Shown one piece after another: positions 362-64,000 of a stretch of DNA of 64,000 nucleotides (its first letter is position 1; each line of letters starts with the position of its first letter). The stretch comes from a virus (lineage: Duplodnaviria; Heunggongvirae; Uroviricota; Caudoviricetes). The notes under the pieces were generated by a model. It saw only the letters and a program-made list of their open reading frames with translations. It searched no databases and had not been told where the DNA came from. The position numbers and the translations under genes are program-made. The stretch lies in IMG/VR virus record IMGVR_UViG_3300045988_145627, positions 1 through 64,000 of that record. One strand, written 5' to 3'.

Positions 362-1023
362 GCAAATACATCATCAACGTATCGTTTCAGACACGCGTAA
401 ATAAAACCACGCGCACGTTGGAAATCGCTGAGTCGTTCGGGCTTGGCCTGGACGAAAAAGAGTGGACGCTTTACGACAATCTGGAGCTGGAAGTGAAGCA
501 GGGCGATGTGGTGTACATCACCGGCCAATCCGGTTCCGGCAAATCCGTTGTGCTGCGCGAGTTGCAACGCCAGATGAAGGATGAAGGGCTTTCTGTAGCC
601 TCCATCGATGATTTTACCTTCGATAATGAGGTTAACGTCATCGATCAGTTGGGCAAAACGACCAGTGATGCGCTTGGGTTGTTATCTATGGCTGGTCTGA
701 ACGATGCATATCTGTTTGTTCGCAAGCCTTCTGAAATGTCAGACGGCCAGAAATATCGTCTCAAGATTGCCAAACTGATTGAGTCAGGCGCTAAAGTATG
801 GGCTGCTGACGAGTTCGGCGCTGTTCTCGACCGTGTAACCGCTCAGGTTGTGGCGTCTAACCTCCAGCGTGCCGCTCGAAAGGTTGGTGCGACGGTAATG
901 GTGGCGACGACTCACGAAGACCTGAAGAACGCGCTGCGCCCGGATATGCAGATCACCAAGCACTACAAAGAACGCGTGAAGGTGGAATATCACAATGGTA
1001 GTCATGATGAGGTCCATTCATGA
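358..1023 (+). CDS. compact ABC-type ATPase (nucleotide-binding domain only)
   Basis: Walker A GQSGSGKS, signature-like MSDGQKYRL, Walker B VWAADEFG, H-loop-like ATTHED; start and stop overlap neighbours. Confidence 0.6.
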   Translation: MSKYIINVSFQTRVNKTTRTLEIAESFGLGLDEKEWTLYDNLELEVKQGDVVYITGQSGSGKSVVLRELQRQMKDEGLSVASIDDFTFDNEVNVIDQLGKTTSDALGLLSMAGLNDAYLFVRKPSEMSDGQKYRLKIAKLIESGAKVWAADEFGAVLDRVTAQVVASNLQRAARKVGATVMVATTHEDLKNALRPDMQITKHYKERVKVEYHNGSHDEVHS

Positions 1024-1910
1024 CGGACATCATCATTAAACGCTACCGCCCTGAAGAGTTTCCGCGTCATCTGGACTTTCTGGAGCGAATGACTGTTACA
1101 AAGGGAACTGTAGAGGACTGGCACGCTCTTAAGTCGCTTCACTACAAAACAGACGGCAAACCTTTCGCGCCAACTTACTATCGCTGCGAACTTGATGACC
1201 GTCTGGTGGGCGTCGTGGTTATGGCTTACCCGAAACTACTGTTGGCACCTCGCCACCGCATGTTTCCTAAGTTGAAACCAACCACTAATACCACCGTGGC
1301 TAACCAGTACTGGGGTCGGTACGTGAATAACAACTTTGCGGTGATCAGTCGCTCAGTTGTGGATACTCAGTATCGTGGCGTAGGCGTCTCTTATCGAATG
1401 ATTAACCTGGTTAGCAGGATGCATGACCGGCCAATCATTGAGATCCAGTCCTCGATGAGCAAATACAATCCCTTCGCCATGAAAGCAGGGTTTAAGTTCA
1501 TCCGCCCTGAGCGACCGAAGAGCTATGAAAGTGCACTGCGTGTGTTCCAGCGCCATTTCCGCTCCGACCCGGGTGATAACGAGGCGATCGTCAAAGAGTT
1601 GTTCGCTATGAGCGAGTCTCGTCGTCGCCGTGCGCTGCGCGATTTGGTGGCGGACTACCACAAGAACAGTTCTCTGGCAAAAGCTGGGCGGAATCGTGGC
1701 ACGACGATTCAGGACATTGCCGACAGTCTGGTGGACGAGGCCAGCATTGTGAAGCTGCTCAAGGACATTCACAACCTGAGCTTTACGTCTCCGTTGTATG
1801 GTGTGTACCGAAACCCTGACTTTGACCGTCGACTGCCTGACACGCTGCCACTGCTGGCATTCGACAAACAACCTTTGGATAAACCGTTAGAAATTGCTTT
1901 ACCGGCATAA
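1020..1910 (+). CDS. GNAT-fold acetyltransferase-like protein with C-terminal extension
   Basis: Motif-A-like QYRGVGVS after a hydrophobic strand and C-terminal NPFAMKAGFKFI resembling the GNAT N..A...Y.K.GF signature; start overlaps ATPase stop. Confidence 0.45.
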   Translation: MTDIIIKRYRPEEFPRHLDFLERMTVTKGTVEDWHALKSLHYKTDGKPFAPTYYRCELDDRLVGVVVMAYPKLLLAPRHRMFPKLKPTTNTTVANQYWGRYVNNNFAVISRSVVDTQYRGVGVSYRMINLVSRMHDRPIIEIQSSMSKYNPFAMKAGFKFIRPERPKSYESALRVFQRHFRSDPGDNEAIVKELFAMSESRRRRALRDLVADYHKNSSLAKAGRNRGTTIQDIADSLVDEASIVKLLKDIHNLSFTSPLYGVYRNPDFDRRLPDTLPLLAFDKQPLDKPLEIALPA

Positions 1911-30974: not shown

Positions 30975-31711
30975 AACGCACATACTCTAAAAATCTTTAT
31001 GAGTTTCCTCACCGTGGGGAAACTCGCGTTTCACGTTTTGGCTACCTCATCAACGAAGCATCGCTTTTCAAAATATCTGAAATAACCATTATCGAGCCTG
31101 ATGATGATATCTGTCTGTATATCCTGATGGAGAAAGTTGGAGCACGAGATCAGGGTGAACTGATGGACTTCATTCTGGACAGAGGCGAAGATGGAATGTC
31201 TGATTCGGACATTATTCAAGCAATTCTGCGTTCCGACATGCTCGATCAGAGCAGAAACACGATAGCAGGCAGAATTGCCTTGCGTGAATACACATTCATC
31301 GAGGATGGGGTAGAGATTGACTGCTATCAGATTGCAGGTGTTGAAACAGAAAGAGCAATAAGGCAAAGGGGACTGTGCAACCTCACGTATCGCTTCCTCC
31401 TTCATTGGTACGAACATCTTGTCTGTGATTACAATCAGACCATTCCTGGCGCAAAAATCTGGGCCGGTCCATTAATGCGAACAGGTGATGTAAGAATTTA
31501 CAACGCAAAAACTGAGACGTTCGAGGATGTGTTAGGCGAATATGGGATGGGAAAAGAAACCGGCTTTTTGCCGTGGAACAGAGGATTGTTACTTGATCCA
31601 GAATTAAGCTCTTGGTTTCCAAATAAGGTGCAAGTTAACGTTGAGAAATTTATCGTACTTATCATCTCCCGCAAAACAAGAACCCCAGTTGGTTTATATC
31701 TAAAAGATTAA
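30959..31711 (+). CDS. hypothetical protein
   Basis: 250 aa ORF overlapping previous stop; followed by terminator. Confidence 0.45.
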   Translation: MAPTLERTYSKNLYEFPHRGETRVSRFGYLINEASLFKISEITIIEPDDDICLYILMEKVGARDQGELMDFILDRGEDGMSDSDIIQAILRSDMLDQSRNTIAGRIALREYTFIEDGVEIDCYQIAGVETERAIRQRGLCNLTYRFLLHWYEHLVCDYNQTIPGAKIWAGPLMRTGDVRIYNAKTETFEDVLGEYGMGKETGFLPWNRGLLLDPELSSWFPNKVQVNVEKFIVLIISRKTRTPVGLYLKD

Positions 31712-31716
31712 CAATT

Positions 31717-31742
31717 AGGCGACTTCGGTCGCCTTTTTTGTT
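31717..31742 (+). terminator. intrinsic terminator
   Basis: AGGCGAC-ttcg-GTCGCCT followed by TTTTTT. Confidence 0.7.
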
Positions 31743-31887
31743 AACAGCCATTGATTCTCGCCTAAAAATTCTAAGGCAGCACCTACCATTTAACCTTTAC
31801 ACCGCAGCCGTAGGCATTTAGGCTATATCACATATAAGAAAACAAGTTGTTTCAGACAATAATAATAGACGCAAAGGGAACTCTCCA

Positions 31888-32556
31888 ATGACCAAGATCT
31901 TTGTGGTTGGCGGCACAAAGGGCGGGCCTGGCAAATCCACCGTTGCCCAGCAAATTGCCGTTTGCCTGAAAGTCAAAAAGAAGAAGAAGGTTTATATCAC
32001 TGATATAGATATTCAGCGCACGACAACAAGCTGGTGTGAAGACCGTCGACAGAACGAAGACCTTGAGCTGATTCCTTTTGCATACGTTCAGGATGACATC
32101 ATTAAGCACCTAAAATCGCTTCAGGGTAGAGCTGAGTTTGTAGTGGTAGATGCTGGTGGCTTTGACTCCGAAATTCAGCGACAAGCGATGCTGATGGCCG
32201 ACGTTATCATTATCCCGCTTCGTCCTAAGCGTCGTGATTTGAAATCTCTGCGTGACATCGATCCTATTATCGACAATGTTCGTAATGTAAACGATAAAGT
32301 GAAGGTCCGCGCGGTCATGAACCAGTGCCCGGCTTTGCCATCACAAGTGTCTCGCATTCTGGCGGCTAAAGAGATTGTCGAGACGTTTGGCATCGAGTCT
32401 GCGCCAGTCAATCTATATAACCGCAACGTCTACGATGATGCGGAAGAGTCTGGTCGTTCTATCTTTGAAATGACCGGTAGCGAGCGCGACAAAAAGGCGG
32501 AAGCCGAGTTTGAAGAATTTGTAGATTATCTGTTGAGTCTGGAGGAAGAAGAATAA
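31888..32556 (+). CDS. parA: ParA/Soj-family partition ATPase
   Basis: Deviant Walker A GGTKGGPGKST, Walker B-like FVVVDAGG; RBS aaggga. Confidence 0.85.
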   Translation: MTKIFVVGGTKGGPGKSTVAQQIAVCLKVKKKKKVYITDIDIQRTTTSWCEDRRQNEDLELIPFAYVQDDIIKHLKSLQGRAEFVVVDAGGFDSEIQRQAMLMADVIIIPLRPKRRDLKSLRDIDPIIDNVRNVNDKVKVRAVMNQCPALPSQVSRILAAKEIVETFGIESAPVNLYNRNVYDDAEESGRSIFEMTGSERDKKAEAEFEEFVDYLLSLEEEE

Positions 32557-32915
32557 TGTCCATGAAAATGGGTGACCTAGCAAAGCGCAAAGAGCCTGAT
32601 GCACCGGCCAAGAACACAACTCCTTTGCGCCAACCAGTCAGACCACAGGGACGCCCGACTCGTGGCAAAGAGAAAATTAAAAGCCGCACAATGTCACTGG
32701 AAGACGAATACTTCGAACTGCTGGAGATGATGAAGTTCATCCCTCGCTTCGAGAAATTCACCCGCTCTGATGTGATTCGTGCTGCTATTTTCCATCTTGC
32801 GGAGAAGACACCGCAGGAAATCGAGGACATCGTAAAGCTGAACGAGGCGATCACAGCTGCCGATGTCACGATGCGTACCGATGAAATTAAACGCGAGTTG
32901 ATGAAGAAAGGTTAA
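32556..32915 (+). CDS. small partition/centromere-binding protein (ParG/RHH-like), putative
   Basis: Start overlaps parA stop (TAATG); basic disordered N-terminus and short helical C-terminus. Confidence 0.45.
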   Translation: MSMKMGDLAKRKEPDAPAKNTTPLRQPVRPQGRPTRGKEKIKSRTMSLEDEYFELLEMMKFIPRFEKFTRSDVIRAAIFHLAEKTPQEIEDIVKLNEAITAADVTMRTDEIKRELMKKG

Positions 32916-32966
32916 TAATGTGGGCTGTCTAGCCCACATTATTTTAATTAAAGTGGAGTGATAATT

Positions 32967-33719
32967 ATGCATTCGTTAGTATTTGCATTTAAAAACATAC
33001 TCAAGAATGTTATAAACATACTAGGGATGTTAAATATTTTTTTGTCTGTGAGGGTGAGGAGAAAAGATATAAAAGATAAAATAAAGGAACTTAACAAAGA
33101 AAAAGAACAATTAAAAAGCGAAGAAATTATTATTGATTTATACAAGAAAAAACTCGCATCTAGCAAGGGGAAAGCTAATGATAAAATCAAAGGAAAAATT
33201 ATTCACTATATTATTGCTAGAGAGTTGGGGAATGATCCTGATAATGAAGATTTTCGACATAATCTTTTTACAAAGATAAAAGAATCAGAAGAACAGGTTG
33301 AAGTTCTGGTTCATCAAAGAGAAGTAAGTGAGCAGGCGAACAAAAAAGAAACGGTTGTCAATTTGTTTTTATTGTATGAAAAAAATAAATTGTTTAAAGC
33401 TAAGGGGTTGGCTGTGTTTCTTATAGTTATAAACTTAATTATAGTTGCGACTCTCGATCTTCCAGCTTGGTCATTGATTATAAGTTTTTTTATTCTCTCT
33501 TTGATTATGTTGAAAGATCAGATACTTACTATTCGTGTCTCTAAAGGATATTTTGGCACAAGTGCGTATGAAGCGGTTCAATTGCTTAAATTCATCAGAG
33601 AAAATTCAGACAAATTTGACTCAGATGATAATGACGGTAGCCCACGACGGATATTGAATCCGAAGGGAACAACAAAAAAATCAGACAACCTATTCGATAA
33701 AGGGTGGCAAAATGTTTGA
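32967..33719 (+). CDS. A+T-rich membrane protein of unknown function
   Basis: ATG at 32967 with RBS aagtggag; N-terminal hydrophobic segment, Lys/Glu-rich helix, two adjacent TM helices (LAVFLIVINLIIVATL, SLIISFFILSLIML). Confidence 0.5.
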   Translation: MHSLVFAFKNILKNVINILGMLNIFLSVRVRRKDIKDKIKELNKEKEQLKSEEIIIDLYKKKLASSKGKANDKIKGKIIHYIIARELGNDPDNEDFRHNLFTKIKESEEQVEVLVHQREVSEQANKKETVVNLFLLYEKNKLFKAKGLAVFLIVINLIIVATLDLPAWSLIISFFILSLIMLKDQILTIRVSKGYFGTSAYEAVQLLKFIRENSDKFDSDDNDGSPRRILNPKGTTKKSDNLFDKGWQNV

Positions 33720-36448: not shown

Positions 36449-37702
36449 GTGGAGAACACCTCCACGCTTGATTCATTGGTGAAACAACTTTTCTTTTGCC
36501 AAACCACAAAAGAAAAACACATGAGCCTTTATGTTATATCAACATTTAGGTTGGTCACAATATTGCCTGTTAAAAGTGGAATTATCGTGAGCGAGCTGAA
36601 AGAGATAATTACCGAATTAGATTTTGAACAATGGTTGGACACTGAAGGTATCGTTTATCGACGTGGAGGCGTGAGTTCTCGCGGTCGTGAAGTGAATATC
36701 AAAGAGTGTCCGGTATGCGGCAGCTCCAACTGGAAGGTATATTTCAATCTGACCAGTGGCGTCGGCAAATGCTTTGCTGGTGATCATCCCGAAGAGATTC
36801 AGTTCAATAAGCTGGTCTTCCTCAAGCACTACAGCGGTAAATCACGACGACAGTTCGAGGAATATGTGCAGAACGCTCTTCTTTCCCAGGGGTGGGCACC
36901 AAAGAAAGAAGAGATAGTGCTTACAAGCACAGTCGAGTTAGAGGGACCACTTGCACTCCCTCGTCATTACGAACTTCCTATAGATGGCCGTCTTCCAGAC
37001 TATCTGGTTGAACGAAACATATCGCCTGAAATGGCAAAGTATTTTGACCTACGATACTGCGTCGAAGGCAAGCACGCTTATGTAGATCCGTATACAGATC
37101 AGGTAAAAGGACAGATATTCGATATGCGAGTACTGATACCGGTTTACGATCTGGATGGGGTAATGAAGACATTTCAGGGACGAGACATTACCGGTACAGC
37201 AGACCGCCGCTACCTCTTTCCTATGCAGCTTCCAGCTTCAGGTAAGTTTCTCTACAACGGCCATAATGCAGTTGGCAAACAGACTGTAGTTGTCTGTGAG
37301 GGGGCGTTCGATGTTATGGGAGTTAAACGAGCTATTTTTGATGAAGAAACATTACGTGATTACGTGGAACCGATAGGAACGTTCGGGATGCATCTATCTG
37401 GTAACACCACTCAGGATGCAGAAGATCAGTTAGGCGCGTTCCTGACGCTCAAGGCGCGTGGGTTACGTAATGTGATCATGATGTGGGATAGTGAAAAGCA
37501 AGCTATACGCAACACGATGGCCGCAGCCAGGCGATTGACCAGTATTGGTCTTAATGTCAAAGTTGCGTGTTTGGGCGAGGAAGGACTCGACCCCGGCGAT
37601 GCGACACCGGGGCAGATTATCAAAGCCTACTATTGCGCAAAACCTTACTCACGACAGCTTGAACTTTTAAGCAAGGTAAAAGGTATAGCAGCATTAGTTT
37701 GA
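36449..37702 (+). CDS. DNA primase (zinc-ribbon plus TOPRIM)
   Basis: CPVCGSSNWKV...GKCFAGDH zinc ribbon; TOPRIM VVVCEGAFDVMG and MMWDSE; true start uncertain. Confidence 0.7.
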   Translation: MENTSTLDSLVKQLFFCQTTKEKHMSLYVISTFRLVTILPVKSGIIVSELKEIITELDFEQWLDTEGIVYRRGGVSSRGREVNIKECPVCGSSNWKVYFNLTSGVGKCFAGDHPEEIQFNKLVFLKHYSGKSRRQFEEYVQNALLSQGWAPKKEEIVLTSTVELEGPLALPRHYELPIDGRLPDYLVERNISPEMAKYFDLRYCVEGKHAYVDPYTDQVKGQIFDMRVLIPVYDLDGVMKTFQGRDITGTADRRYLFPMQLPASGKFLYNGHNAVGKQTVVVCEGAFDVMGVKRAIFDEETLRDYVEPIGTFGMHLSGNTTQDAEDQLGAFLTLKARGLRNVIMMWDSEKQAIRNTMAAARRLTSIGLNVKVACLGEEGLDPGDATPGQIIKAYYCAKPYSRQLELLSKVKGIAALV

Positions 37703-38731
37703 ACCAGTATTAGTCACGTAAACATTGACCGAAAATGATTTAACTTCTGTGTTGAAGTTGTCAGTCATTACCGCGAGGTAGGCATTCTTGGTATCTCTGA
37801 ATTGCTTCAGGATGATTTGAACGTTATCGGTGCAAACAAACGAGGTAGCCAGATTGCCTCCTTTCTCTGAAAAATCCTTTAGGAAAGTGCAGTCAATTTT
37901 GCCATCATTAGCGGTGAAGGTGGCATCATCACCCTGCCAGGTAAATGTTGCGTTAACGCCTTTATCAATGGATTTAGCAATAAGTCGTTGAGTGGAGGAT
38001 TTTGCTTTAGATCTTGCAGCTGATGGTTGGTATTTACCGCTTTCTTTTAGTTCTGCAATGTAATCACAGCCATTTTTATCTTCTTTATCGCAAGCTGCCT
38101 GATAAAGCTCAGCTGCTTTTTTATAATCTTTTTTAACCCCTTCACCATACTCATACATAATGCCAAGATTCGCCAATGCAGATGCACTGCCTAGTTCGAT
38201 TCCTTTTTTATAATACTCTATTGCCTTTTTGTAGCTTTTTGGCACGCCTGCGCCAACATAATATAACTGTCCTAAATATGACGCAGATTCAGGGTCGCCA
38301 GCCTCTACTGCAAGTTTGTGATATTTCAGGGAAAGTTTTTGGTCTTTCTTACCCGCAAGTCCTTTATGATAAATAACACCCAGATTGTGATAAGAGTTGC
38401 CTCCAGCTGCATCACCAGCTTTCTTAAAGAGTTCCTCTGCCTTTTTGAAATTTTTATCAACCCCATACCCAAGGGCATACATTATACCTAGAGCATTAAA
38501 CGCTTCTTTGTTCCCCTTAGAAGTCGCCAGTTCAAGCCATTTTCTGGCTTCATCGTAGTTTTTTTCGACACCATGAATACCTTTCATATAGTCGATACCT
38601 AAAGCACTCTGTGACTCAACGTCGCCTGCTTTTGCCGCATCGATCAGCTTTTGTATTTCATAGGCATGTGCACTCCCCGAAACAAGTAATAGCGACAACA
38701 TAAAGAAAGATATTGGTTTGAAATGTTTCAT
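37694..38731 (-). CDS. secreted Sel1-repeat (TPR-like) protein
   Basis: Signal peptide MKHFKPISFFMLSLLLVSGSAHA; repeated Sel1-like units ending ...YYKKA/ELYQ.. Confidence 0.75.
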   Translation of the reverse strand: MKHFKPISFFMLSLLLVSGSAHAYEIQKLIDAAKAGDVESQSALGIDYMKGIHGVEKNYDEARKWLELATSKGNKEAFNALGIMYALGYGVDKNFKKAEELFKKAGDAAGGNSYHNLGVIYHKGLAGKKDQKLSLKYHKLAVEAGDPESASYLGQLYYVGAGVPKSYKKAIEYYKKGIELGSASALANLGIMYEYGEGVKKDYKKAAELYQAACDKEDKNGCDYIAELKESGKYQPSAARSKAKSSTQRLIAKSIDKGVNATFTWQGDDATFTANDGKIDCTFLKDFSEKGGNLATSFVCTDNVQIILKQFRDTKNAYLAVMTDNFNTEVKSFSVNVYVTNTGSN

Positions 38732-42978: not shown

Positions 42979-43053
42979 GATGGTGTAGCTCAGCGGTAGA
43001 GCAGTTGGCTGTTAACCAACTGGTCGGTGGTTCGAATCCGTTAACCGGCACCA
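42979..43053 (+). tRNA. tRNA-Asn(GTT)-like, non-canonical T/acceptor stems (possible pseudogene or fragment)
   Basis: Canonical D arm GCTC-AGCGGTA-GAGC, anticodon arm GTTGG-CTGTTAA-CCAAC, T loop TTCGAAT, 3' CCA; T and acceptor stems need wobble pairs and mismatches. Confidence 0.45.
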
Positions 43054-43548: not shown

Positions 43549-44883
43549 TCATGCCAAATTATCCAGATTTCTTTTCTTTTGTTCAATTATATTTCTCGCG
43601 CCAGAAAAAATTTTACTCAAAATAATTGATTTGCTTGCTCTATTATTAAGATGTAACAACGCGCTATAAAATACATAGTTATCTATTTTACTATTTAAAG
43701 TATTCCCAAGCTTCCCGTCATATATGCTATTAATAGTATTAAAATATACATGTTCAGGACCTATATTACAAATACCCCTATCAACTCGCTTTAAATAATG
43801 TTTAACTAAAGAAATAGCATCTTCCTTATCATTAATAACATAAAGTCCTGAGCGTTTACCCAGTTTGCTGTTCGAGAGCAATTTACAACCTACAAGCTCA
43901 CTTAACGTATCTTCAAAATTTTTCAACTCTTTGTCGGCGTTTTCCAGATAATGCTCAATCTCTTTCTCCATATTACTTATTAGAGAATTAAATTCTGCTC
44001 GTAACAAATCACCACCAGGTGATTTATAACTCCATAAAATTGAATTGGTAATACGTACTACGTCAGATACTTCTGGTTTCTCTGAATAGTTTTTGTATCT
44101 AGTGCAAATAATGCTGTGCTTTATATATTCTCTAACTAATGATCGATAATCCCTTTCGAAAAGGGTTTTGACATCTAGTCTTCCATTGCTTGTTGTTATT
44201 AGTGTGGTATTTAAAACTGGGTCGCCTTCAAAAAAATTATATTTATTTAGTAATCGTTTTAGCTTGTGTGAATTATGTGATGTTTCGCCATAATAATTTA
44301 GCCCAAAAATAGCAATTATTAGCATAACATCAGGAGTGATGAAATGTCGTAATTGCTCGGCATAAACTTTTTTCTCTTCGATTTTCGAAGATGGAGAGTA
44401 AAAACCTTTGTCTATATATTCTAATATTGAAACAATATTACTAACATAACGTATAAAAACTTGATTCATTACAACGGAACCATAAACCTGATGCAAATAA
44501 TCTACTCTCAAGTTGTTTTTTATTTTTTCCCCTGTGCTAGATGATAACTCTTCTTTTACCTGCCCAAGTAGCTTTTCGTGGTGCTCCAGCAATGTTTTAA
44601 ACCATTGTTCAAATGATGATTTTCTTGCCTCAGTTAATGAATCTGATGTTATCTGGACAGCTTTCATAGCTGCTTTCGCACTTTTCTTTGCTTCATAAGC
44701 GTTCCATGCTGTAGCACAAAAAGCTGCCGCCGTGATGCAACTGGTAAAAATAGAAATCCTATCTGCAACATTCAAGCTCCAGAACCAATCAGACGATGAA
44801 ATCAAAACCACAGATATTACGGGAACAATGAAAATCAAAACAGGCATGTATGTACTCGCTCTAATAGTTATTAGTCGAGGCAA
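43549..44883 (-). CDS. A+T-rich membrane-anchored protein of unknown function (candidate exclusion/abortive-infection factor)
   Basis: 444 aa; N-terminal TM helices (MPVLIFIVPVISVVLISS, ISIFTSCITAAAFCATAW), large soluble C-terminal domain; composition differs visibly from flanks. Confidence 0.55.
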   Translation of the reverse strand: MPRLITIRASTYMPVLIFIVPVISVVLISSSDWFWSLNVADRISIFTSCITAAAFCATAWNAYEAKKSAKAAMKAVQITSDSLTEARKSSFEQWFKTLLEHHEKLLGQVKEELSSSTGEKIKNNLRVDYLHQVYGSVVMNQVFIRYVSNIVSILEYIDKGFYSPSSKIEEKKVYAEQLRHFITPDVMLIIAIFGLNYYGETSHNSHKLKRLLNKYNFFEGDPVLNTTLITTSNGRLDVKTLFERDYRSLVREYIKHSIICTRYKNYSEKPEVSDVVRITNSILWSYKSPGGDLLRAEFNSLISNMEKEIEHYLENADKELKNFEDTLSELVGCKLLSNSKLGKRSGLYVINDKEDAISLVKHYLKRVDRGICNIGPEHVYFNTINSIYDGKLGNTLNSKIDNYVFYSALLHLNNRASKSIILSKIFSGARNIIEQKKRNLDNLA

Positions 44884-45482: not shown

Positions 45483-46586
45483 ATGAAAAATAGCTTTGAC
45501 AGAGCACGCGCTGCGGAGAACACCTCAAAAGAGGCGATTGAGTATCTCGAAAGAGCATCTCAAATGCAGGCCGTTATGATCTCCCAGGTCAGCAATGACA
45601 TGAGATTCTCGGACGCATTCATGTTATTCACTCGCTTATCTCTGCTGATAACAAGACGTCGGCCAGAGATCGCTGTTCATTGTATTTTGATACATGTTTT
45701 GCCGCACATTGCCGATGTAAAAGTAAGTGATATTAATAGGTTCATGGTGAACCAACTGGTCAACCCACTAATACTGGATGGCAAAATTGTTATGGGTCGC
45801 CGCGTTTTCTCTCTGATGAAGCAGTTCCTCAGCTGGTGCGCCTTCCAGGGGATGATCGACGTGTCACCGTTAAACGATATGTCACTTAACAAAGTTGCCG
45901 GTGGCGCAAAGCCCACACCTCGCGAGCGGAAGCTAACCGACGCAGAGGTATGGGTGTTCTGGAATATATGGGACTACTTCAATGTGTGTGCTGGTACAAA
46001 ATGGGCGGCCAGGCTATGTCTTGTATCCGCAAGACGACCTGACGAAGTACTGCGGGCTAAAAAAAGTGAGTTCAACCTCCAGCGTGGGGTTTGGAATCAA
46101 GGCAAGAGAAACAAATCAGCCCGTGAGCATTCTCTGCCTTTAAGCACATTAATGCGCACATGCATTGAAGAGTTATTCGAATATGGTAAAGGCAGCCAGT
46201 GGCTTGTGCCTTCGAATAAAAAAATCGGGAAAGATCTTCCGATGTCTAAAGTGGCAATAGCCCAGGCATTACGCCGTATCCTGGAACGACCAGAACTGAT
46301 GGAGCTTGAGCCATTTACACCACGAGATTTGCGTCGTACTGCGCGTAGTTACTTCCCAGCATTAGGCATAAGCCAGGAGGTATCACGTAAAATCATGAAC
46401 CACAGTCTTGAGGGGATAGATCGGGTCTACGACCGGCACGATTATATGGACGAGATGCGAGACGCCTTAGAAAGTTTCTCGACGTACATCGCATCAATCG
46501 TAGAGCAACCGGATTTAGACGAAATTGACCACAAATTCAAGGGAGATCGTCTATCGACAGAGCTTATTCGTGTAAATTTTTCATAG
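45483..46586 (+). CDS. tyrosine recombinase (integrase/resolvase family)
   Basis: C-terminal catalytic region with RRPDE..., FTPRDLRRTARS, NHSLEG..RVYDRHDY (Tyr nucleophile context). Confidence 0.7.
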   Translation: MKNSFDRARAAENTSKEAIEYLERASQMQAVMISQVSNDMRFSDAFMLFTRLSLLITRRRPEIAVHCILIHVLPHIADVKVSDINRFMVNQLVNPLILDGKIVMGRRVFSLMKQFLSWCAFQGMIDVSPLNDMSLNKVAGGAKPTPRERKLTDAEVWVFWNIWDYFNVCAGTKWAARLCLVSARRPDEVLRAKKSEFNLQRGVWNQGKRNKSAREHSLPLSTLMRTCIEELFEYGKGSQWLVPSNKKIGKDLPMSKVAIAQALRRILERPELMELEPFTPRDLRRTARSYFPALGISQEVSRKIMNHSLEGIDRVYDRHDYMDEMRDALESFSTYIASIVEQPDLDEIDHKFKGDRLSTELIRVNFS

Positions 46587-47529: not shown

Positions 47530-49638
47530 ATGTCCAAAAAACGTTCCATCAAAGAGGTTCAGGACTTCCGTGACAGTGTAAAACGAGTAGTCGCTCTCCT
47601 TTCAGGTAAAAACATCCCTGTTGCAGAACGAGGGGACGACGCTTATGTACGCTATAACGATGATGGAGAGCCAATTCTCGTAAACATCCCATCAATCCCA
47701 GATAACGCAACACCGGCATTGATGAATGCAGTACGCGGATTTCTAGATCATGAAGTTGCTCACATTTTGTTTACCGATATTCATGTGTCCAACAAAATGA
47801 GAGAAAAAGGACACGTCCCTTCCTGGTCACTATGGAATGCCTTAGAAGACGTGTTCATCGAGCGAAAAATGGGGCAGGTCTTTAACGGAACAAGACGTAA
47901 TCTGATGGCAACTCAGCGCCTGATAATCGAAAAAGTCTTTAAACCAAAGGCTTCAGAGGCTATTACTTATTGTGGCAAAGATCAGCGCGCGCTTTTTCTA
48001 AACTTCTTTCTCTGTCCGGTTGTAAGAGCCTGGGATGGCCAAGCACCGTTCGTAGATTTCATGGATGAATACTGGCCTGTCATTGAGAAACCAATTTCAT
48101 TATTAAAAGAACATGGTATCGATGTGGCCGTGCGTAACATGTCTTGCACGGAGGATTGTTTAAAGGTGGCTGCGACCATAGCTAAGATCCTCAAAGACAC
48201 AGAAAGTGAAAGCAAAGGTAAGGAGTCAGCTCCGGGAAAAACTCCCGATCCTTCAGACGCTGACCAAGCGGATTCCTCTGGAGAAAGTAATGAAGACAAT
48301 GAAGATCACAAGACACATGAGATGCTAGATAATCACATATCTATAGATGATGAGTCACACGGTAAGTACATACATGATGATAACGATAGTGATGATTCAG
48401 ATAATTCTGAATCATCAGAAACAATATTCGATGATACAAAAAATGATAAAGAGGTATTAGATTCTGATACTTCCAATAGCGCGACGACAGAAGCAACTAC
48501 CTCGGATCACGAAAAAAGAAAAACGGCAGAAGACGGCTCTTCAGACATTCCCACTCCGTCCAAAATGAGTCTGGAAGAGGCTTTAGAGGAGCTTGATAGC
48601 ATGGAAGATGAAGTCGGAGGCATGACAGAAGATGCACTATCCGAAACGATTAAAAGCGAGTTAACAGAAAGCTCGAAAAGCGAATACAGGCCATACAATC
48701 GCTCATACGACTTCATCGGTTCGATTGATCAGGCAGAAGCCCATATCAAACGGCTTATTAAAACATTCTCCGATATTGATTTAGGTGGATATCCAATCAG
48801 CCGTTATCGCATCGTTCCTGAAGGCAACCAACTCTTCGACAAATATATTGAAAAGCATCTTTCGTCAGGTGTTTCGTCGACGCTGGCAAAAGACCTGGAG
48901 CGTGCAATTGCAAGCAGAAACAGAGTTCAGTTTATACCGGGCCAGCGTCGGGGGCGCATTCATGGTTCTAGTATCTACAGATTAGCAATGAATGATGATC
49001 GCGTGTTTCGTAAAAAAGAAGAATCTAAGGCCGTTAACGCCTGTGTTCAACAAGTGATTGATTTATCAGGTTCAATGAGCGGCGAAACGATTAAACTGGC
49101 TCTTGCAAGTGCATATACCATCGCCGATGCGCTTGATCGAATAAATGTTCCCAACATTATCACCGGCTTCACAACATTTGGTAGTCATATGGCAGCAGGA
49201 GAGCTTAAGGCAATCAAGTATGAGTTCTCTCGCTTTGAATCTTTAATGCTACCTATCATCAAAAATTGGAATGAAAAGGCAAATTCTCGCGAAGTTCGCT
49301 CACGTATGGGGTGCGTAGGCTACACATTCCCACTTCTTAATAACGTGGATGGTGAAAGCATAGCCAGCCTTGCATCGTTATTTTCTGGTCGCATGGAGGA
49401 CAAGAAGATCATGCTTGTTCTAAGCGATGGCGCGCCGTGGGCTGTTGGGAGAGGTTTTGACGCTCATTTGCGTTCGGTTGCGAAGCAAATTGAAACGCAG
49501 ACTGACATTGATTTGATGGCAATTGGCATCATGACTGACGCACCGGAGAGATTTTACGCAAACCATGCCCTAGTAACGAGCGTTGATAGTCTTGGTTCAT
49601 CTGTAGTTACTGAACTATCTCGTATCATTTTGAAGTGA
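47530..49638 (+). CDS. von Willebrand factor A domain protein (CobT-like) with acidic low-complexity insert
   Basis: MIDAS motif IDLSGSMSGE; Asp/Ser/Glu-rich stretch DDNDSDDSDNSESSE. Confidence 0.75.
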   Translation: MSKKRSIKEVQDFRDSVKRVVALLSGKNIPVAERGDDAYVRYNDDGEPILVNIPSIPDNATPALMNAVRGFLDHEVAHILFTDIHVSNKMREKGHVPSWSLWNALEDVFIERKMGQVFNGTRRNLMATQRLIIEKVFKPKASEAITYCGKDQRALFLNFFLCPVVRAWDGQAPFVDFMDEYWPVIEKPISLLKEHGIDVAVRNMSCTEDCLKVAATIAKILKDTESESKGKESAPGKTPDPSDADQADSSGESNEDNEDHKTHEMLDNHISIDDESHGKYIHDDNDSDDSDNSESSETIFDDTKNDKEVLDSDTSNSATTEATTSDHEKRKTAEDGSSDIPTPSKMSLEEALEELDSMEDEVGGMTEDALSETIKSELTESSKSEYRPYNRSYDFIGSIDQAEAHIKRLIKTFSDIDLGGYPISRYRIVPEGNQLFDKYIEKHLSSGVSSTLAKDLERAIASRNRVQFIPGQRRGRIHGSSIYRLAMNDDRVFRKKEESKAVNACVQQVIDLSGSMSGETIKLALASAYTIADALDRINVPNIITGFTTFGSHMAAGELKAIKYEFSRFESLMLPIIKNWNEKANSREVRSRMGCVGYTFPLLNNVDGESIASLASLFSGRMEDKKIMLVLSDGAPWAVGRGFDAHLRSVAKQIETQTDIDLMAIGIMTDAPERFYANHALVTSVDSLGSSVVTELSRIILK

Positions 49639-49733: not shown

Positions 49734-50969
49734 ATGACTACTACTGCACTGCAAAATGAAAAAAATCCTTCTGATTACCTTGTTTGCAAGTGGTGCGGAA
49801 AATCATTTCACTATTTTAAGTCCCATGTAGCCAATGGTAATTGCGAGGGCATTCCTGAGTCAGTAAAAGATGCCGATCCTGACACCGTACTGAAAATGTA
49901 CACAACGCAGTTTCCAGATGAGCCAACGCTATCGAAAAAGGCACTTGATGCAATTCAAGCTAAACGTGCCGAGCAAAAAAGCGAAATGGCCAAATCATCT
50001 GGCGTGACCAATAGCCCAGGCTATACAGGCACAGTTGAGTACAAGACAGATCTGGTCGCAGCTCACGAACTGCTAAATGTAACGGTGAAAGAACTCGGAA
50101 CAAAACGTGGGACGCCGCTCATGGTTAGCGTCAACGTCAATACGCCGTTTCCAGAGTTCGTTCCAGAAGTGAAGAAGGGATACGTATATGGCGACTTCGA
50201 ACTGATCAAAGACATTTTCATGATGCTTGAACTTGGCATACCAGGCTATTTGTGGGGTCATGCAGGAACAGGCAAATCTTCATTGCCTACACAACTATGT
50301 GCTTTGCTCAATCGTCCGTTAATCCGTGCCCAACATACAGCATCAATGGAAGAGGCTCATGTTACGGGACAAATTCTGGCGCGTGATGGCTCTACGTATT
50401 TCGAGCCTGGCTTGCTTGCGCTCGCAATGAAGCATGGCTGGGTTTACCTCGCGGATGAATACGACTTTGCGTTTCCACAGATTCTTGGCGTGTATCAGCC
50501 AGTGCTGGAAGGTGAAGCGTTGGTCATCAAAGAGGCGACTCCAGAATGGCGTCGCATTACTCCGCATGAACGGTTTGCTTTCATTGGCACTGGCAACACG
50601 AACGGATCTGGTGATGAAACCGGCTTGTACCAGGGTACAAACATCCAGAACGCCGCTAACTTTTCGCGTTTTGGCATCGTTTCGAATGTGAAATACATGA
50701 GCAAAGAGGCAGAGATCAGCATGTTGATAAATGCTGGCATCGTGGATGAATACGCTGAAAAGATGGTTAAGTTTGCCGGTATCGTTCGCGATGGATACGA
50801 AGAACACCTGATCAGTCAGCCGATTGGCCCTCGTGAACTTTTGTTGTCGGCCAAGATTGGAATGATGCGAGGCGACTTTGTGACAGGTATTGAGCGTTCT
50901 TTCATTAACAAACTCCCTTCAGCTTCTGCGCAAGCGGCACGTGAAGTTGTTCAAAAAATATTTGGTTAA
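49734..50969 (+). CDS. AAA+ ATPase (MoxR/CobS-like) with N-terminal Cys cluster
   Basis: Walker A GHAGTGKSSL, Walker B YLADEYDF; CKWCGKSFHYFKSH...C. Confidence 0.75.
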   Translation: MTTTALQNEKNPSDYLVCKWCGKSFHYFKSHVANGNCEGIPESVKDADPDTVLKMYTTQFPDEPTLSKKALDAIQAKRAEQKSEMAKSSGVTNSPGYTGTVEYKTDLVAAHELLNVTVKELGTKRGTPLMVSVNVNTPFPEFVPEVKKGYVYGDFELIKDIFMMLELGIPGYLWGHAGTGKSSLPTQLCALLNRPLIRAQHTASMEEAHVTGQILARDGSTYFEPGLLALAMKHGWVYLADEYDFAFPQILGVYQPVLEGEALVIKEATPEWRRITPHERFAFIGTGNTNGSGDETGLYQGTNIQNAANFSRFGIVSNVKYMSKEAEISMLINAGIVDEYAEKMVKFAGIVRDGYEEHLISQPIGPRELLLSAKIGMMRGDFVTGIERSFINKLPSASAQAAREVVQKIFG

Positions 50970-60189: not shown

Positions 60190-61020
60190 ATGAAGAAAGG
60201 TTTACTTGCAGTTGCTCTGGCGGCTATTTGCACAATGGGTCTTACTGGCTGTGATCGCGTGGAGCCTGGATACGTTGGCATCAAAGTAAACAAATTAGGT
60301 GAAGACAAAGGGATTGGTGAAGTGGTTGGCGTTGGTCGCCAATGGACAGGTCTTAACACCGAACTTTACGTATTCCCGACCTTCAAACAAATGAAGACCT
60401 ACGACGAGCCGTTCACATTCCAGATGAGTGACGGTACTGCTATTGGTCACAAAATTGGCGTTGCGTATCTGGTTAATCGTGACAAGGTAACGACGGTGTT
60501 CCAGACCTATCGCAAAGGCGTAGACGATATCACCGAATCAGATCTGCGTCAGAAAATTGCCGACTCTCTAAACCGTTTGGCCAGCCGTATGACCACTGAC
60601 TCATTTATCGACGGTGGTAAGGCACAATTGCTGGACAACGCACTGAAAGATATTCAGAAAGAGATGTCTCCGGTTGGTATTGAGGTACTGAGCCTGTCAT
60701 GGGTTGGAAAGCCTGATTACCCAAAAACTGTCATTGAATCTATTAACGCCAAAGTAACGGCTAACCAGCGTACTCTGCAACGTCAGCAGGAAGTTGAACA
60801 ACGTAAAGCTGAGGCGAATATGCTACGTGAACAGGCTAATGGTGAAGCTGATGCTATCCGTGCTCGTGCGCAAGCAGAAGCAGACGCCATTCGTCTGCGC
60901 GGTGAAGCTCTGCGTCAAAACCCGAACGTTATGGAACTGGAAGCCATCAATAAATGGAATGGCCAGTTACCGCAGTACATGACTCAAGGGGCTAACACTC
61001 CTTTCATTACAGTGAAATAA
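60190..61020 (+). CDS. SPFH/Band-7 domain lipoprotein
   Basis: Lipoprotein signal ...MGLTGC; SPFH-like VEPGYVGIKV start; C-terminal coiled coil QRKAEANMLREQANGEADAIRARAQAEADAIR. Confidence 0.65.
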   Translation: MKKGLLAVALAAICTMGLTGCDRVEPGYVGIKVNKLGEDKGIGEVVGVGRQWTGLNTELYVFPTFKQMKTYDEPFTFQMSDGTAIGHKIGVAYLVNRDKVTTVFQTYRKGVDDITESDLRQKIADSLNRLASRMTTDSFIDGGKAQLLDNALKDIQKEMSPVGIEVLSLSWVGKPDYPKTVIESINAKVTANQRTLQRQQEVEQRKAEANMLREQANGEADAIRARAQAEADAIRLRGEALRQNPNVMELEAINKWNGQLPQYMTQGANTPFITVK

Positions 61021-62090: not shown

Positions 62091-62422
62091 AGGCCATCCC
62101 ATTCGCGCTGTTGTTCCTTTCTTCGATCGTTGTGGCCGACACCACTGTTTATCAGTGTGAAATGTCTGTAGCCGACGTTAAGAATGGCGCTCTTACCGAC
62201 GTCATAAAAGCACCATATGGAGCGATGGTCGTAGACAGCGGCGACCAGTTCTATGTTGTGCGTGACGATCGAGTGTTGTCATCCCCATATCTCACAAATC
62301 GTAATGGCAAATTAACCGGCGTCGGAGAAGACCACTTCGTATACAACAAATACAAGGGCTTCTATGGTGTTCACGCTTCTCAGCAAAGCTACCTTTTCGA
62401 TGACTGCAAGGAGGTTGGATAA
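62087..62422 (+). CDS. small secreted protein
   Basis: Signal peptide MKAIPFALLFLSSIVVADT, two Cys. Confidence 0.4.
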   Translation: MKAIPFALLFLSSIVVADTTVYQCEMSVADVKNGALTDVIKAPYGAMVVDSGDQFYVVRDDRVLSSPYLTNRNGKLTGVGEDHFVYNKYKGFYGVHASQQSYLFDDCKEVG

Positions 62423-62634
62423 TGGCATTAACACTGGCAGGTCTGGAAATCGAGAAAACAAGCGGCTACTGGCGTGCTAAGGGTTTCAAGCAGCCTGGCA
62501 TTCTTGAGCGTCTGGAACGTGAAGATGGGTATATCGTCCACCAGCGGCGTGAATGGCGTATGTACGATCCAGAAACAGGAAAACTGACTACAAAAGCCGG
62601 AACACTTTGGGGTCTGTTAAAGAAAATACACTAA
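62422..62634 (+). CDS. hypothetical small protein
   Basis: 70 aa, start overlaps previous stop. Confidence 0.35.
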   Translation: MALTLAGLEIEKTSGYWRAKGFKQPGILERLEREDGYIVHQRREWRMYDPETGKLTTKAGTLWGLLKKIH

Positions 62635-62682
62635 ATGCAAACTGACTGCGGCACGTTCCGCAGTCATATTTCATAGTCGTCA

Positions 62683-63214
62683 CCGCTGACAGCATACACA
62701 ATCAACTACCGCTGATAGCATATCGAGAGTCTATCTCACCGCTCACAGCATACTTTACTCGATTTTTTACCGCTGACAGCATACTTAAGACATTGCATGA
62801 ATAATGTGTACCGGTATGGGTATAACCAGAACAAAATTACCGCTGGCAGCATACGAAGGTCTGACATATACCATTAATTACCGCTGATAGCATATCCAAA
62901 CAAAAATTCCTCAATAAAACACCGCTGACAGCATACGTTCTATCAGGGAGCAGCAGGCAATAAATGCCTTTCACTACAAGCAATCAGCGCAATAGCAATA
63001 GAATGTTAGTGAGCGCAAACCTATATGGAATGCACTCTTCGAGGTTAGTAACCACTGGGGAGGTATGACAGAGCATTGAGTGGTGATAGATGATTTACCG
63101 CCCACAGCATACGTTCATCTCACTATACCGCTGGTAGCATATCTTTAACCGTTCACAGCATACTTTTCAGAAAAATAGCCGCTGATAGCATACATTTCAC
63201 CGCTGACAGCATAT
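62683..63214. repeat. iteron array: 12 direct copies of 15-bp CCGCTGA(C/T)AGCATA(C/T), putative plasmid replication origin
   Basis: Copies at 62683, 62709, 62739, 62770, 62840, 62881, 62922, 63098, 63128, 63149, 63179, 63200 in two clusters; adjacent to rep-like gene. Confidence 0.85.
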
Positions 63215-64000
63215 CAAAGCAGTTTGAGACTATTGGAAAGGATCTCAATCATCTTGATATTTTCAGGCGTCAAATTCTGCGAAAGTTCGGTTATCTTGTT
63301 GATAATGTTCTGTTTGGCATCAATTTCCCCAGCTTTCTCATCTAGTTTTTTGGGTTCGATGTCTTCAGGTTTTGGCGGTGCGACTTTGAGTTTTGGATTG
63401 CGGCTGTGAATCTGGATATAGATCGACCGCCCTCGTTTAATCTCGCTGTATTCGAGATAACCCAAATCTTGGAGAGCTTTTAAGCCGTTGCGTATAGTCT
63501 GATTCTGCGAGCTGACATTCCTGCTACTCAAATTGAGTCGCGCACGCAATCGAGCAAGCGACACCGGCGCAGGCTTGGTTGGAAGACTTTCGATGAAGGT
63601 GTACAGAGCCTGTGCTGTTTCTTTGCGTGGTAGCTTATTGATAACCTTTAACTGCAAAAGAACCTTATGGTCAAAGCGATATAGTTCGGCCAGCTTCGGT
63701 TCTGCATAGAACACCACCGTATCTTTCTGCTCGTTGTAGTCCACGCTATTGATGAGGTGCACCATCAGAAGCGAGATCTTGTTAGAGCCGTCGACGTTCT
63801 TTTCTTCATACGTTCTCTGGAAAGACAGAGTTGTACGCATGATCTTCAAAAGACTGTTTGTAAGCCGGTCGCGGAGTGTTTTGCGGATCTGTGACGATGG
63901 ATAGCCACAAAACTTCGCAAATTTCGTGATGCTTAACTCGACACGACCGTTAGGTTCGCCGTATTCTGCCAGCGAACGCACAACGCCCACCCACGTTTTG
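63214..64000 (-). CDS. replication initiator (iteron-binding Rep-like, winged helix), 5' end may lie beyond window
   Basis: ORF open to window edge; basic Lys-rich N-terminus and helix-rich LPRKETAQALYTFIESL segment; abuts iteron array. Confidence 0.6.
   Translation of the reverse strand, partial: KTWVGVVRSLAEYGEPNGRVELSITKFAKFCGYPSSQIRKTLRDRLTNSLLKIMRTTLSFQRTYEEKNVDGSNKISLLMVHLINSVDYNEQKDTVVFYAEPKLAELYRFDHKVLLQLKVINKLPRKETAQALYTFIESLPTKPAPVSLARLRARLNLSSRNVSSQNQTIRNGLKALQDLGYLEYSEIKRGRSIYIQIHSRNPKLKVAPPKPEDIEPKKLDEKAGEIDAKQNIINKITELSQNLTPENIKMIEILSNSLKLL

Follow-up and report, generated by a model that had tools for sequence, protein, structure and literature searches.

In the mini-F replicon (ori2/incB - repE - incC) and in RepFIB of P307, origin iterons lie upstream and copy-control iterons downstream of the initiator gene. 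Both are conjugative-plasmid replicons and not phage replicons, and they are likened to the locus described here by logic, not by sequence. The downstream iteron arrays of P1 and F are dispensable for initiation; through titration of RepA and handcuffing they keep the copy number low, and they bring about incompatibility. In some other iteron families, IncA/C for example, downstream origins have been reported. P1 itself is a temperate phage maintained as a plasmid, as is the element described here, and was compared using its GenBank annotation and a review. The oriR annotated in the P1 record comprises two DnaA boxes and five Dam sites, as well as five iterons that contain PrepA and are spaced 21, 21, 21 and 22. 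incA begins at the repA stop codon and holds nine iteron copies, three direct and six inverted, and a type Ia parAB operon follows directly. According to the review, copy number is modulated, through titration and handcuffing, by additional iterons located downstream of rep.

Described systems also include the Salmonella phage SSU5, pHCM2, Yersinia pestis pMT1 and phage Cyrano (pLF82), which carry a RepA of the same family as the protein examined here (about 48% identity) and iterons on both sides of its gene. Their iterons are of the ACCACTGTAGAGAGT type, the downstream copies are in mixed orientation, and a second ori-like module is present further upstream of repA. Cyrano has been reported to be maintained at about 5.5 plasmid copies per cell and to produce virions upon ciprofloxacin induction.

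Relationship of the window to known phage-plasmids

The window, the whole 64-kb stretch of DNA analysed here, was compared with plasmid and phage records. A circular E. coli plasmid of 108,954 bp matched its last 1.4 kb at 100% identity. The window end was 99% identical to pECOH89 (99.1% over 1,401 bp of its replicon), p09EL50 and the phage records CMS-2020a and PhiR41_1. pECOH89, p09EL50 and PhiR41_1 displayed 98.7-99.2% identity across rep and the iterons, and in all three the genes for virion, replisome and partition are of the same kind as in the window. The PhiR41_1 entry is that of a complete phage genome and gives E. coli MG1655 as the host. The first 25 kb of the window was only 98.9% identical to the best plasmid record, and therefore the molecule from which the window derives is not CP057798.1 itself, the record used below as a reference. 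The rest of the window was 98-99% identical to the best plasmid records. Cyrano displayed 96% identity over 74% of window positions 25-50 kb, and SSU5 81%. The phage backbone is of the SSU5-type siphovirus and not of the P1-type phage, and the differences in iterons and ori-like modules from the SSU5 group point to a different replicon allele on a related phage. Judging from these identities, the window belongs to the SSU5-like phage-plasmids with an IncFIB(H89-PhagePlasmid) replicon. This PlasmidFinder type name was taken from a 2026 paper on plasmid pEc_K1G_A and is assigned here by replicon near-identity.

We then considered where such replicons reside. A replicon match was present in 132 of 5,426 complete E. 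coli genomes, at 124 places on plasmids and 10 on chromosomes. The five chromosomal matches among those listed were all 33-nt matches to CRISPR spacers. An integrated prophage was rejected, as there was no chromosomal copy among the matches listed. PLSDB contained 140 replicon records, and the four that were inspected (pRHB14-C22_3, pECOH89, p4_0.2 and pMB3825A_2) were all circular, so that extrachromosomal circular maintenance is found in relatives. The sequence-only reading had concluded that the element is a phage maintained as a plasmid, and had proposed topology and chromosomal integration as the points to check. With near-identical circular plasmids and phage records, and with the replicon on plasmid records, this conclusion is correct but not new, the SSU5-like phage-plasmid family having already been described. 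It is one of the commonest phage-plasmid groups in E. coli. Some of its members carry resistance genes such as blaCTX-M-15, and in pECOH89 an ISEcp1-blaCTX-M-15 insertion adjoins the replicon module. A preprint on a heteroresistance phage-plasmid was also considered as possibly concerning this replicon, and was set aside because it deals with an unrelated, CopA/CopT-controlled family.

The rep gene and the iterons downstream of it

The window ends inside rep (Table 1). It contains 261 codons of the 364-aa RepA, and the other 103 (about 28%) lie beyond the edge, with the start codon at window-equivalent position 64308. The fragment within the window matched Pfam Rep3_N with an E value of 3e-9, above the gathering score. 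With the full-length protein, a sequence search against PDB chains gave no match at E up to 1, and no family was found in NCBIfam. Homology was therefore assessed by tblastn against phage records, which revealed 43.5% identity to P1 RepA over residues 32-309 (E=2e-64). The protein is longer than P1 RepA by about 30 residues at the N-terminus and 55 at the C-terminus. Identity to SSU5 RepA was 47.9%, and that to the Reps of Klebsiella phage-plasmids was 85-88%. The rep product is an initiator of the Rep3/winged-helix type and a homologue of P1 RepA. It appears as 'RepB family' or 'RepFIB replication protein A' in annotations by PGAP and others, and many public records lengthen the gene by 40 codons across the putative origin iterons.

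Table 1. Coordinates of replicon and partition features in the window
Feature	Position	Strand	Remark
ParA-type partition ATPase, 222 aa	31888..32556	+	PHROG ParA-like 4e-51
ParA partner ORF, 119 aa	32556..32915	+	translationally coupled to parA
Terminator-like hairpin, 9-bp stem, 6 G-C pairs, readable on both strands	62643..62666	.	consensus scan only
Distal iteron cluster, 7 copies of 15-bp core	62682..62935	-	rep-sense core TATGCTGTCAGCGGT
Spacer between iteron clusters, 161 bp	62936..63096	.	gap in iteron matches
Proximal iteron cluster, 5 copies, spacing 30, 21, 30, 21	63097..63213	-	
rep, 3' 72%: codons 104-364 + stop codon	63214..64000, continues past window	-	Rep3-type ORF

A search of the whole 64 kb for ACCGCTGACAGCATA, allowing up to three mismatches, gave 14 matches. 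In 100 shuffled windows the mean was 1.63 and the largest number 6, and 14 was reached in none of them. On the + strand, 12 of the 14 matches are packed into 532 bp (62682-63213) and split 7 + 5. The twelve direct 15-bp iterons in two clusters that had been noted from the sequence are thus real, and their count is far above the shuffled expectation of about 1.6. The array had been placed one base late, at 62683. It is hardly conceivable that the repeats are non-functional duplications or a chance pattern, taking into account both this count and the conservation of the core in E. coli and Klebsiella lineages, where it always occupies the same position relative to the stop codon and the flanking DNA is only about 77% identical.

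The distal cluster has start-to-start spacings of 26, 30, 31, 70, 41 and 41, with one orientation throughout. We propose that it is the variable outer part of a putative incA-type copy-control array. The spacer between the clusters was without an Rfam match, DnaA box or GATC site, and its length is lineage-specific, the distance between the flanking iterons being 176 bp here and 75-87 bp in Klebsiella relatives. Between the end of a + strand operon (stop codon at 62634) and the distal iteron end there is a hairpin, of presumed function, that marks the outer boundary of the replicon module. An Rfam scan of the whole window found one tRNA and no match in the replicon region, and thus no antisense-RNA control element is evident there. 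A promoter scan of 62400-64000 gave background-level matches only. Some annotations mark the downstream repeats as an origin or as att sites.

The last proximal iteron ends at 63213 and the rep stop codon occupies 63214-63216. The iterons do abut the Rep-like gene at the window edge, as the sequence-only reading had stated, with the qualification that they do so at its 3' end, and therefore are not situated at the rep promoter. Neither a DnaA box (up to one mismatch) nor a GATC site was found among the twelve iterons. The label 'iteron origin' given to them is probably wrong, because all twelve are downstream of the rep stop codon, at the position of incA in P1.

The module upstream of rep and the proposed function of the downstream array

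The region upstream of rep is outside the window and was read from records 99-100% identical to the window end. CP057798.1, which is 100% identical to window positions 62600-64000, was used as the reference. An origin-like module was found 308-551 bp past the window edge. Going upstream from rep in CP057798.1, it consists of five iterons spaced 21, 21, 21 and 23, a GC-rich spacer, and beyond the spacer six GATC sites within 59 bp and two overlapping DnaA boxes. The DnaA/GATC/five-iteron module is present upstream of rep in CP057798.1, PhiR41_1 and p4_0.2. In pECOH89 the five upstream iterons are present and the locus is cut at the record start; this plasmid has the same 5 + 12 iteron layout as the window lineage. 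A consensus scan of the 500 bp upstream of rep detected no sigma-70 promoter, with weak matches only, by eye.

P1 displays the same order of parts: DnaA boxes, Dam/GATC repeats, a GC-rich spacer, five iterons spaced by about 21 bp, repA, and an array. From the DnaA boxes as far as the spacer, identity to P1 oriR was 69% (84 of 122 columns), whereas it was only 38% in the upstream iteron stretch. The conserved part would be the one that meets host factors, and the diverged part the one that sets Rep specificity. The iteron itself differs, being GATGTGTGCTGGAGGGAAA in P1 and TATGCTGTCAGCGGT here, and therefore the specificity of the Rep-iteron interaction presumably differs as well. Whereas P1 incA has copies in both orientations, the twelve copies here are all direct and are divided by the spacer; this is a difference of detail and not of logic. 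As in P1, the downstream array begins at +1 after the stop codon. With an oriR-repA-incA layout as in P1, the repeats in the window therefore correspond to incA. We consider it very probable that the twelve downstream iterons are an incA-type copy-control array and that the origin proper is situated upstream of repA, outside the window.

The element would then contain a P1-type iteron replicon in the order origin - repA - control array, with the window ending inside it. DNA would probably be opened at the six-GATC (Dam) stretch of the upstream module, and the five upstream iterons probably also cover the repA promoter, which would allow autoregulation. The downstream iterons would be additional RepA-binding sites that directly follow the stop codon of repA. 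The array may keep the copy number low in two ways, by sequestering RepA (titration) and by being paired through RepA with origin iterons, either on the same plasmid or on a sister plasmid (handcuffing). It would thereby cause incompatibility. We infer by homology that Rep binds the iterons, that firing occurs upstream, that copy control is exerted downstream, and where the promoter is located. The sequences themselves establish the repeat statistics, the homology of Rep and of oriR, the fixed versus variable geometry and the occurrence of the replicon on plasmids only.

The geometry was examined in IMG/VR loci. The first downstream iteron was found at +1 after the rep stop codon in 75 of 75 loci, and the upstream iteron set spanned 86 bp in all of 70. 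The downstream array, on the other hand, varied from 8 to 12 copies with 21 spacing patterns. In 69 loci, the upstream module contained 5-7 GATC sites and 1-3 DnaA boxes, whereas the downstream array was free of GATC in 51 and of DnaA boxes in 62. Among the sampled records, downstream copies numbered 9 in PhiR41_1, 13 in p4_0.2 and 8-9 in Klebsiella; the distal cluster lacks three copies in PhiR41_1 and has one extra in p4_0.2.

These results bear on the possibility that the downstream clusters are themselves the oriV, at which bound Rep opens the DNA. Iterons are a hallmark of Rep3-type plasmid origins, twelve copies would be a strong putative Rep-binding platform, and A+T reaches 68% in parts of the array. 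Moreover, the 2026 paper on the near-identical pEc_K1G_A designated the downstream repeats an iteron-type oriV, from sequence inspection only. The rep annotation in that paper is 404 aa long and its first 40 codons are translated upstream iterons; the upstream set was therefore left unconsidered. The upstream geometry is constant, whereas copy number and spacing downstream vary between close relatives. Origins do not usually show such drift. DnaA boxes and a GATC cluster are present upstream and neither is present downstream, and the upstream core is the part that resembles the experimentally defined P1 oriR. An oriV in the downstream clusters is thus unlikely.

Both sides might also be active, with the downstream array or one of its clusters acting as a second Rep-dependent origin. 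There are two clusters with distinct spacing regimes (21/30 bp and 26-70 bp) around the 161-bp spacer, and SSU5, pHCM2 and pMT1 bear two tandem ori-like modules upstream of repA, so that duplicated origin modules do occur in the group. In SSU5, however, a DnaA box and a GATC cluster accompany each of the two modules, and both are missing from the downstream clusters here. In addition, PhiR41_1, which was submitted as a complete phage genome, lacks part of the distal cluster. We regard a second origin as very unlikely.

Returning to the incA-type copy-control array, its variability raises a further idea, which we put forward tentatively and consider doubtful: that the array is an evolvable copy-number dial rather than a fixed copy of P1 incA. 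Variants with 8 to 13 sites would arise when iterons recombine unequally, and these variants would set different copy numbers. If so, iteron number would affect how many copies of cargo genes, blaCTX-M-15 among them, a cell carries, and might also shift the balance between plasmid maintenance and lytic growth. The analysis as a whole yields no new biology. Its practical value is the correction of annotation to a P1-type oriR-repA-incA module, from which experimenters would know the 250 bp to be cloned as the origin and the array to be altered if the copy number is to change.

Partition and phage genes

Virion, lysis and replication genes share one molecule with the plasmid replication and partition genes. 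The sequence-only reading had listed a complete virion, lysis and replisome gene set. We identified DnaE, RecA, a DnaB-like helicase, primase, ligase and FEN in the window, together with a gp32-family SSB (PF08804, 1.7e-66), terminase, portal, endolysin and an Ig-domain structural protein. For the tape-measure, tail-tip and tail-fibre genes the sole source is the RefSeq annotation of pMB3825A_2, a 99.7%-identical relative, and the listing is borne out to this extent. The co-occurrence of DnaE with a gp32-type SSB had been called unusual. Both genes are indeed present, but the pair is also annotated in the 99.7%-identical relative and is therefore not peculiar to this window.

The partition genes are found about 30 kb from the replicon, in contrast to the parAB operon of P1. 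The ParA-like gene that had been reported at 31888 does encode a small ParA-type ATPase. The protein matched NCBIfam ParA_partition at 1.9e-33, below the cut-off, and Pfam MipZ/AAA_31/CbiA. Its size and Walker type agree with those of the ParF/ParG class (type Ib), which has a ParA of about 200-220 aa.

The adjoining 119-aa protein had been labelled ParG-like. Membership in ParG found no support in Pfam, where no family matched even at E up to 10, nor in PDB sequences, where matches were at E of about 1 and unrelated. Its PHROG match is a family of unknown function. AlphaFold models had low confidence (pLDDT 64 without an alignment and 65 with a 13-sequence alignment), and Foldseek gave no match to the low-confidence model in PDB. 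The 25 homologues are all apparently inside this plasmid family. The protein has a conserved N-terminal MGDLAKR motif, a disordered N-terminus, a basic linker and a possible ribbon-helix-helix segment (SRTMSLEDEYFELLEMM...TRSDVIRAAIFHLAE), and is an unproven candidate for the centromere-binding protein. A repeat search of 31600-33100 for a centromere revealed no convincing repeat family. A perfect 13-bp inverted repeat is present directly after the parA operon, at 32914-32943.

Iterons at the 3′ end of rep

The sequence-only reading had described twelve iterons in two clusters beside a Rep-like gene, and this was borne out by a repeat search against shuffled sequences and by a Pfam match. Twelve plus-strand copies of a 15-bp core, ACCGCTGACAGCATA (TATGCTGTCAGCGGT in the sense of rep), lie at 62682-63213 with 0-2 mismatches per copy. 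At up to three mismatches, 14 sites were present in the 64-kb window against a shuffle expectation of 1.63 (maximum 6), and 12 of the 14 fell inside 532 bp. The clusters are 161 bp apart, and most spacings are close to multiples of the helical turn. The rep gene is on the minus strand and continues past the window end; its 261 codons inside the window match Pfam Rep3_N (E=3e-9, above the gathering score) and, weakly, Rep3_C. Its stop codon lies right beside the last iteron, and the array adjoins the 3′ end of rep, a geometry that the sequence-only reading had not drawn out. On its other side the array adjoins a small gene, whose counterpart in SSU5 and pJN2-26 is annotated as "putative Cre-associated protein".

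Features of the replicon, the partition region and neighbouring genes (asterisk, window-equivalent coordinates read from pRHB14-C22_3)
Feature	Position	Strand	Detail
parA	31888-32556		222 aa, ParA-type ATPase
parA partner	32556-32915		119 aa
Inverted repeat	32914-32943		perfect, 13 bp, AATAATGTGGGCT / AGCCCACATTATT, 4-nt gap
tRNA gene	42979-43050		Rfam
Tyrosine recombinase ("integrase")	45483-46586		
CobT-like VWA protein	47530-49638		702 aa
AAA_5 ATPase	49734-50969		411 aa
Small gene	62422-62634		adjoins iteron array
Distal iteron cluster	62682-62935	+	n=7; spacing 26, 30, 31, 70, 41, 41
Proximal iteron cluster	63097-63213	+	n=5; spacing 30, 21, 30, 21
rep stop codon	63214-63216	-	
CRISPR protospacer in rep	63746-63777		32 nt
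rep start codon	64308*	-	364-aa protein
Five upstream iterons	64329-64429*		spacing 23, 21, 21, 21
GC-rich spacer	64440-64470*		
Six GATC sites	64471-64529*		surrounding DNA 70-72% A+T
Two overlapping DnaA boxes	64535-64551*		TTATTCACA and ATATCCACA

An origin-like module upstream of rep and its counterpart in P1

The DNA beyond the window edge was read from the circular 108,954-bp E. coli plasmid pRHB14-C22_3 (CP057798.1), which is 100% identical to the last 1.4 kb of the window and whose record starts at the rep ATG. An AAGGTG Shine-Dalgarno-like motif precedes the start codon. Going upstream, the order is iterons, GC-rich spacer, GATC sites and DnaA boxes. Among the twelve downstream iterons, we found no DnaA box (up to one mismatch) and no GATC site.

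Full-length Rep shares 43.5% identity with RepA of phage P1 (residues 32-309, E=2e-64), 47.9% with SSU5 RepA and 85-88% with the Reps of Klebsiella phage-plasmids. In the P1 GenBank record, oriR holds two DnaA boxes, five Dam sites and five 19-bp iterons (spacing 21, 21, 21, 22) containing PrepA; repA follows, and then the incA incompatibility region with nine iterons, the first starting at the repA stop codon. The order of the parts, their counts and the abutment of the array on the stop codon match the element. From the DnaA boxes to the GC-rich spacer, identity to P1 oriR is 69% (84/122 columns; 76% for a Klebsiella relative), against 38% over the upstream iteron stretch, which indicates that the module predicted to contact host factors is conserved whereas the putative Rep-specific sites have diverged. 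Because order, counts, abutment and sequence match P1, the twelve iterons in the window very probably correspond to incA, and the origin to the module just past the window. The label "iteron origin", which the sequence-only reading had given to the window repeats, is thus probably wrong.

The element also differs from P1. Its 17 iterons all share one orientation, whereas in incA three copies are direct and six inverted, and the arrays of SSU5-type elements are of mixed orientation. Its array is split by a spacer of lineage-specific length, Rep is extended at both termini compared with P1 RepA, and the partition genes lie away from the replicon. SSU5 (L007 1265-1530 and 1640-1945), pHCM2 (L012) and Yersinia pestis pMT1 (L013) have two tandem origin-like modules upstream of repA, 375 bp apart, each with a DnaA box, a GATC cluster and an iteron set; the window element has one module only.

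An origin set is predicted to be geometrically constrained, and a set acting as a regulatory sink to be free to vary. In the sampled E. coli, K. pneumoniae and K. oxytoca records, the five upstream iterons occupy the same positions, -121 to -35 from the ATG, and so, wherever the sampled locus reaches, do the DnaA boxes at -243/-235 (-243 alone in K. oxytoca) and the GATC cluster at -221 to -166. Downstream copies number 12 in the window element and pECOH89, 13 in p4_0.2, 9 in PhiR41_1, 8-9 in K. pneumoniae, 9-10 in K. oxytoca and 9 in P1. PhiR41_1 (L001 4083-4513) is missing the three outermost, distal copies and p4_0.2 (L009) has one extra 26-bp unit at the distal end; such whole-iteron differences among close relatives are consistent with repeat-repeat recombination.

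The same picture, fixed upstream and variable downstream, was obtained with 75 independent IMG/VR loci encoding Rep at 78-100% identity. The upstream set spanned exactly 86 bp in 70 of 70 loci with enough flank; all five copies were detected in 58 of these, and in the others one or two copies had diverged by more than three mismatches. Downstream, we counted 8 (7 loci), 9 (21), 10 (8), 11 (11) or 12 (28) copies in 21 spacing patterns, with the array starting at +1 after the rep stop codon in 75/75. Among 69 loci, the upstream module contained 5-7 GATC sites and 1-3 DnaA boxes; the downstream array lacked GATC in 51 and a DnaA box in 62.

From the homology with P1 and the general iteron-plasmid model set out in a review, we infer the following scheme. 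Rep monomers would bind the five origin iterons and, with DnaA, open the adjacent GATC-rich stretch; re-initiation would probably be gated by Dam methylation and hemimethylation, and rep is probably autorepressed by Rep on the origin iterons. The twelve sites downstream would titrate Rep and pair with the origin iterons (handcuffing), which would keep the prophage-plasmid at low copy number, and would confer incompatibility with plasmids bearing the same iterons.

The 2026 description of pEc_K1G_A called the downstream repeats oriV and stated that the plasmid is unrelated to P1. Because of the P1 homology we would assign these repeats a different function, the sole departure from published annotation. 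The rep model in that paper has 404 aa, with the translated upstream iterons as its first 40 codons, and many records (pECOH89, L004 3615-4829; p4_0.2, L009; a further locus, L010; pJN2-26, L008) likewise annotate a Rep of 404-405 aa, in which 40 additional codons at the N-terminus (MLSAVIDSLSAVHRMLPTVFGILSAANQVCCQRLNDKGVH) come from translating the five iterons. The 364-aa start, with AAGGTG upstream, is the one chosen in other RefSeq records. The attR and attL annotated in Klebsiella phage pJN2-26 (L008 1833-1852 and 3103-3122, 20 bp each) are in fact one upstream and one downstream iteron of the replicon rather than attachment sites.

Relatives and episomal state

The sequence-only reading of the element as a phage-plasmid is right, as judged by near-identity to known phage-plasmids, gene content and the occurrence of the replicon on plasmid records, and was already established. 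Over the last 1.4 kb, identity is 99.1-99.2% to the O104:H4 plasmid p09EL50 and to pECOH89, which a 2014 paper presented as a phage-like plasmid akin to Salmonella phage SSU5; three entries submitted as phages (two CMS-2020a; PhiR41_1, host MG1655) reach 98.7-99.2%. This stretch matches 140 PLSDB records, 134 of them typed non-mobilizable. Near-identical pEc_K1G_A was typed IncFIB(H89-PhagePlasmid) (2026), and, according to Pfeifer et al. (2021), no set of related phage-plasmids is larger than the SSU5 supercommunity, most of whose members type as IncFIB.

Since no PLSDB record exceeds 98.9% identity over the first 25 kb, compared with 100% for the replicon end and pRHB14-C22_3, the element is a mosaic relative distinct from that plasmid. 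The backbone of phage Cyrano/pLF82 has 96% identity over 74% of window 25-50 kb, with a different RepA allele (48% identity). Both comparisons indicate that backbone and replicon are swapped independently in these phage-plasmids. For Cyrano/pLF82, a copy number of ~5.5 per cell and a 39-fold induction of virions by ciprofloxacin have been measured.

The replicon was matched in 132 of 5,426 complete E. coli genomes; plasmid records account for 124 of the matching places and chromosomes for 10. An integrated copy is rejected for the five chromosomal matches listed, all of them 33-nt, 100% matches within annotated CRISPR arrays. In E. coli HS (L014 601-633), a 32-nt type I-E spacer is identical to the protospacer inside rep, where an adjoining CTT on the plus strand gives the canonical AAG PAM; a spacer 100% identical to rep occurs in chromosomal type I-E arrays of HS and of at least four further strains. 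Being CRISPR spacers with a canonical PAM, the listed matches are a record of immunity against the element. As E. coli spacers match both rep and PhiR41_1 (seven, according to a 2025 paper), the SSU5-like/PhiR41_1 family is a natural CRISPR target.

Partition genes and gene content

A ParA/ParG-like pair had been proposed; profiles confirmed the ParA-type ATPase, and the ParG assignment found no support. The coupled 119-aa ORF matched neither a PDB relative nor any Pfam family, including ParG; its AlphaFold models were of low confidence (pLDDT 64-65) and gave no Foldseek match. Its 25 homologues apparently all lie inside this plasmid family. Their alignment contains an invariant N-terminal MGDLAKR, which could be a peptide stimulating the ParA ATPase, then a hypervariable basic linker and the invariant basic stretch RPQGRPTRGK; one segment also has a pattern compatible with a ribbon-helix-helix domain. 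As a guess at architecture, "ParG-like" is thus reasonable, but membership of the ParG family is not supported. The inverted repeat directly after this operon may serve as a terminator or as a binding site.

The virion, lysis and replisome list of the sequence-only reading agrees with the genes found: terminase large subunit, portal, Ig-domain structural protein and endolysin; DnaE, DnaB-like helicase, primase, ATP-dependent ligase, FEN, RecA and a gp32-family SSB (PF08804, 1.7e-66). Tape-measure, tail-tip and tail-fibre genes were taken from the RefSeq annotation of the 99.7% relative pMB3825A_2. DnaE and the gp32-family SSB do co-occur, but the pairing is not peculiar to the window, since both are annotated in that relative.

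The CobT-like VWA protein and AAA_5 ATPase genes are neighbours beside dnaE, with no obvious phage role. Accessory genes at 37694-38731 (-), 43549-44883 (-), 60190-61020 (+) and 358-1910 (+) encode a Sel1-repeat protein, a weakly AbiC-like abortive-infection-domain protein, an SPFH/Band 7 lipoprotein and two ABC-type ATPases. A tyrosine recombinase is present, though no integrated copy was seen among the matches listed; by analogy with Cre in P1, it may resolve plasmid dimers. Rfam detected a single tRNA gene in the window and four (Ser, Thr, Tyr, Asn) are annotated in the corresponding region of pMB3825A_2, so tRNA content varies in the family.
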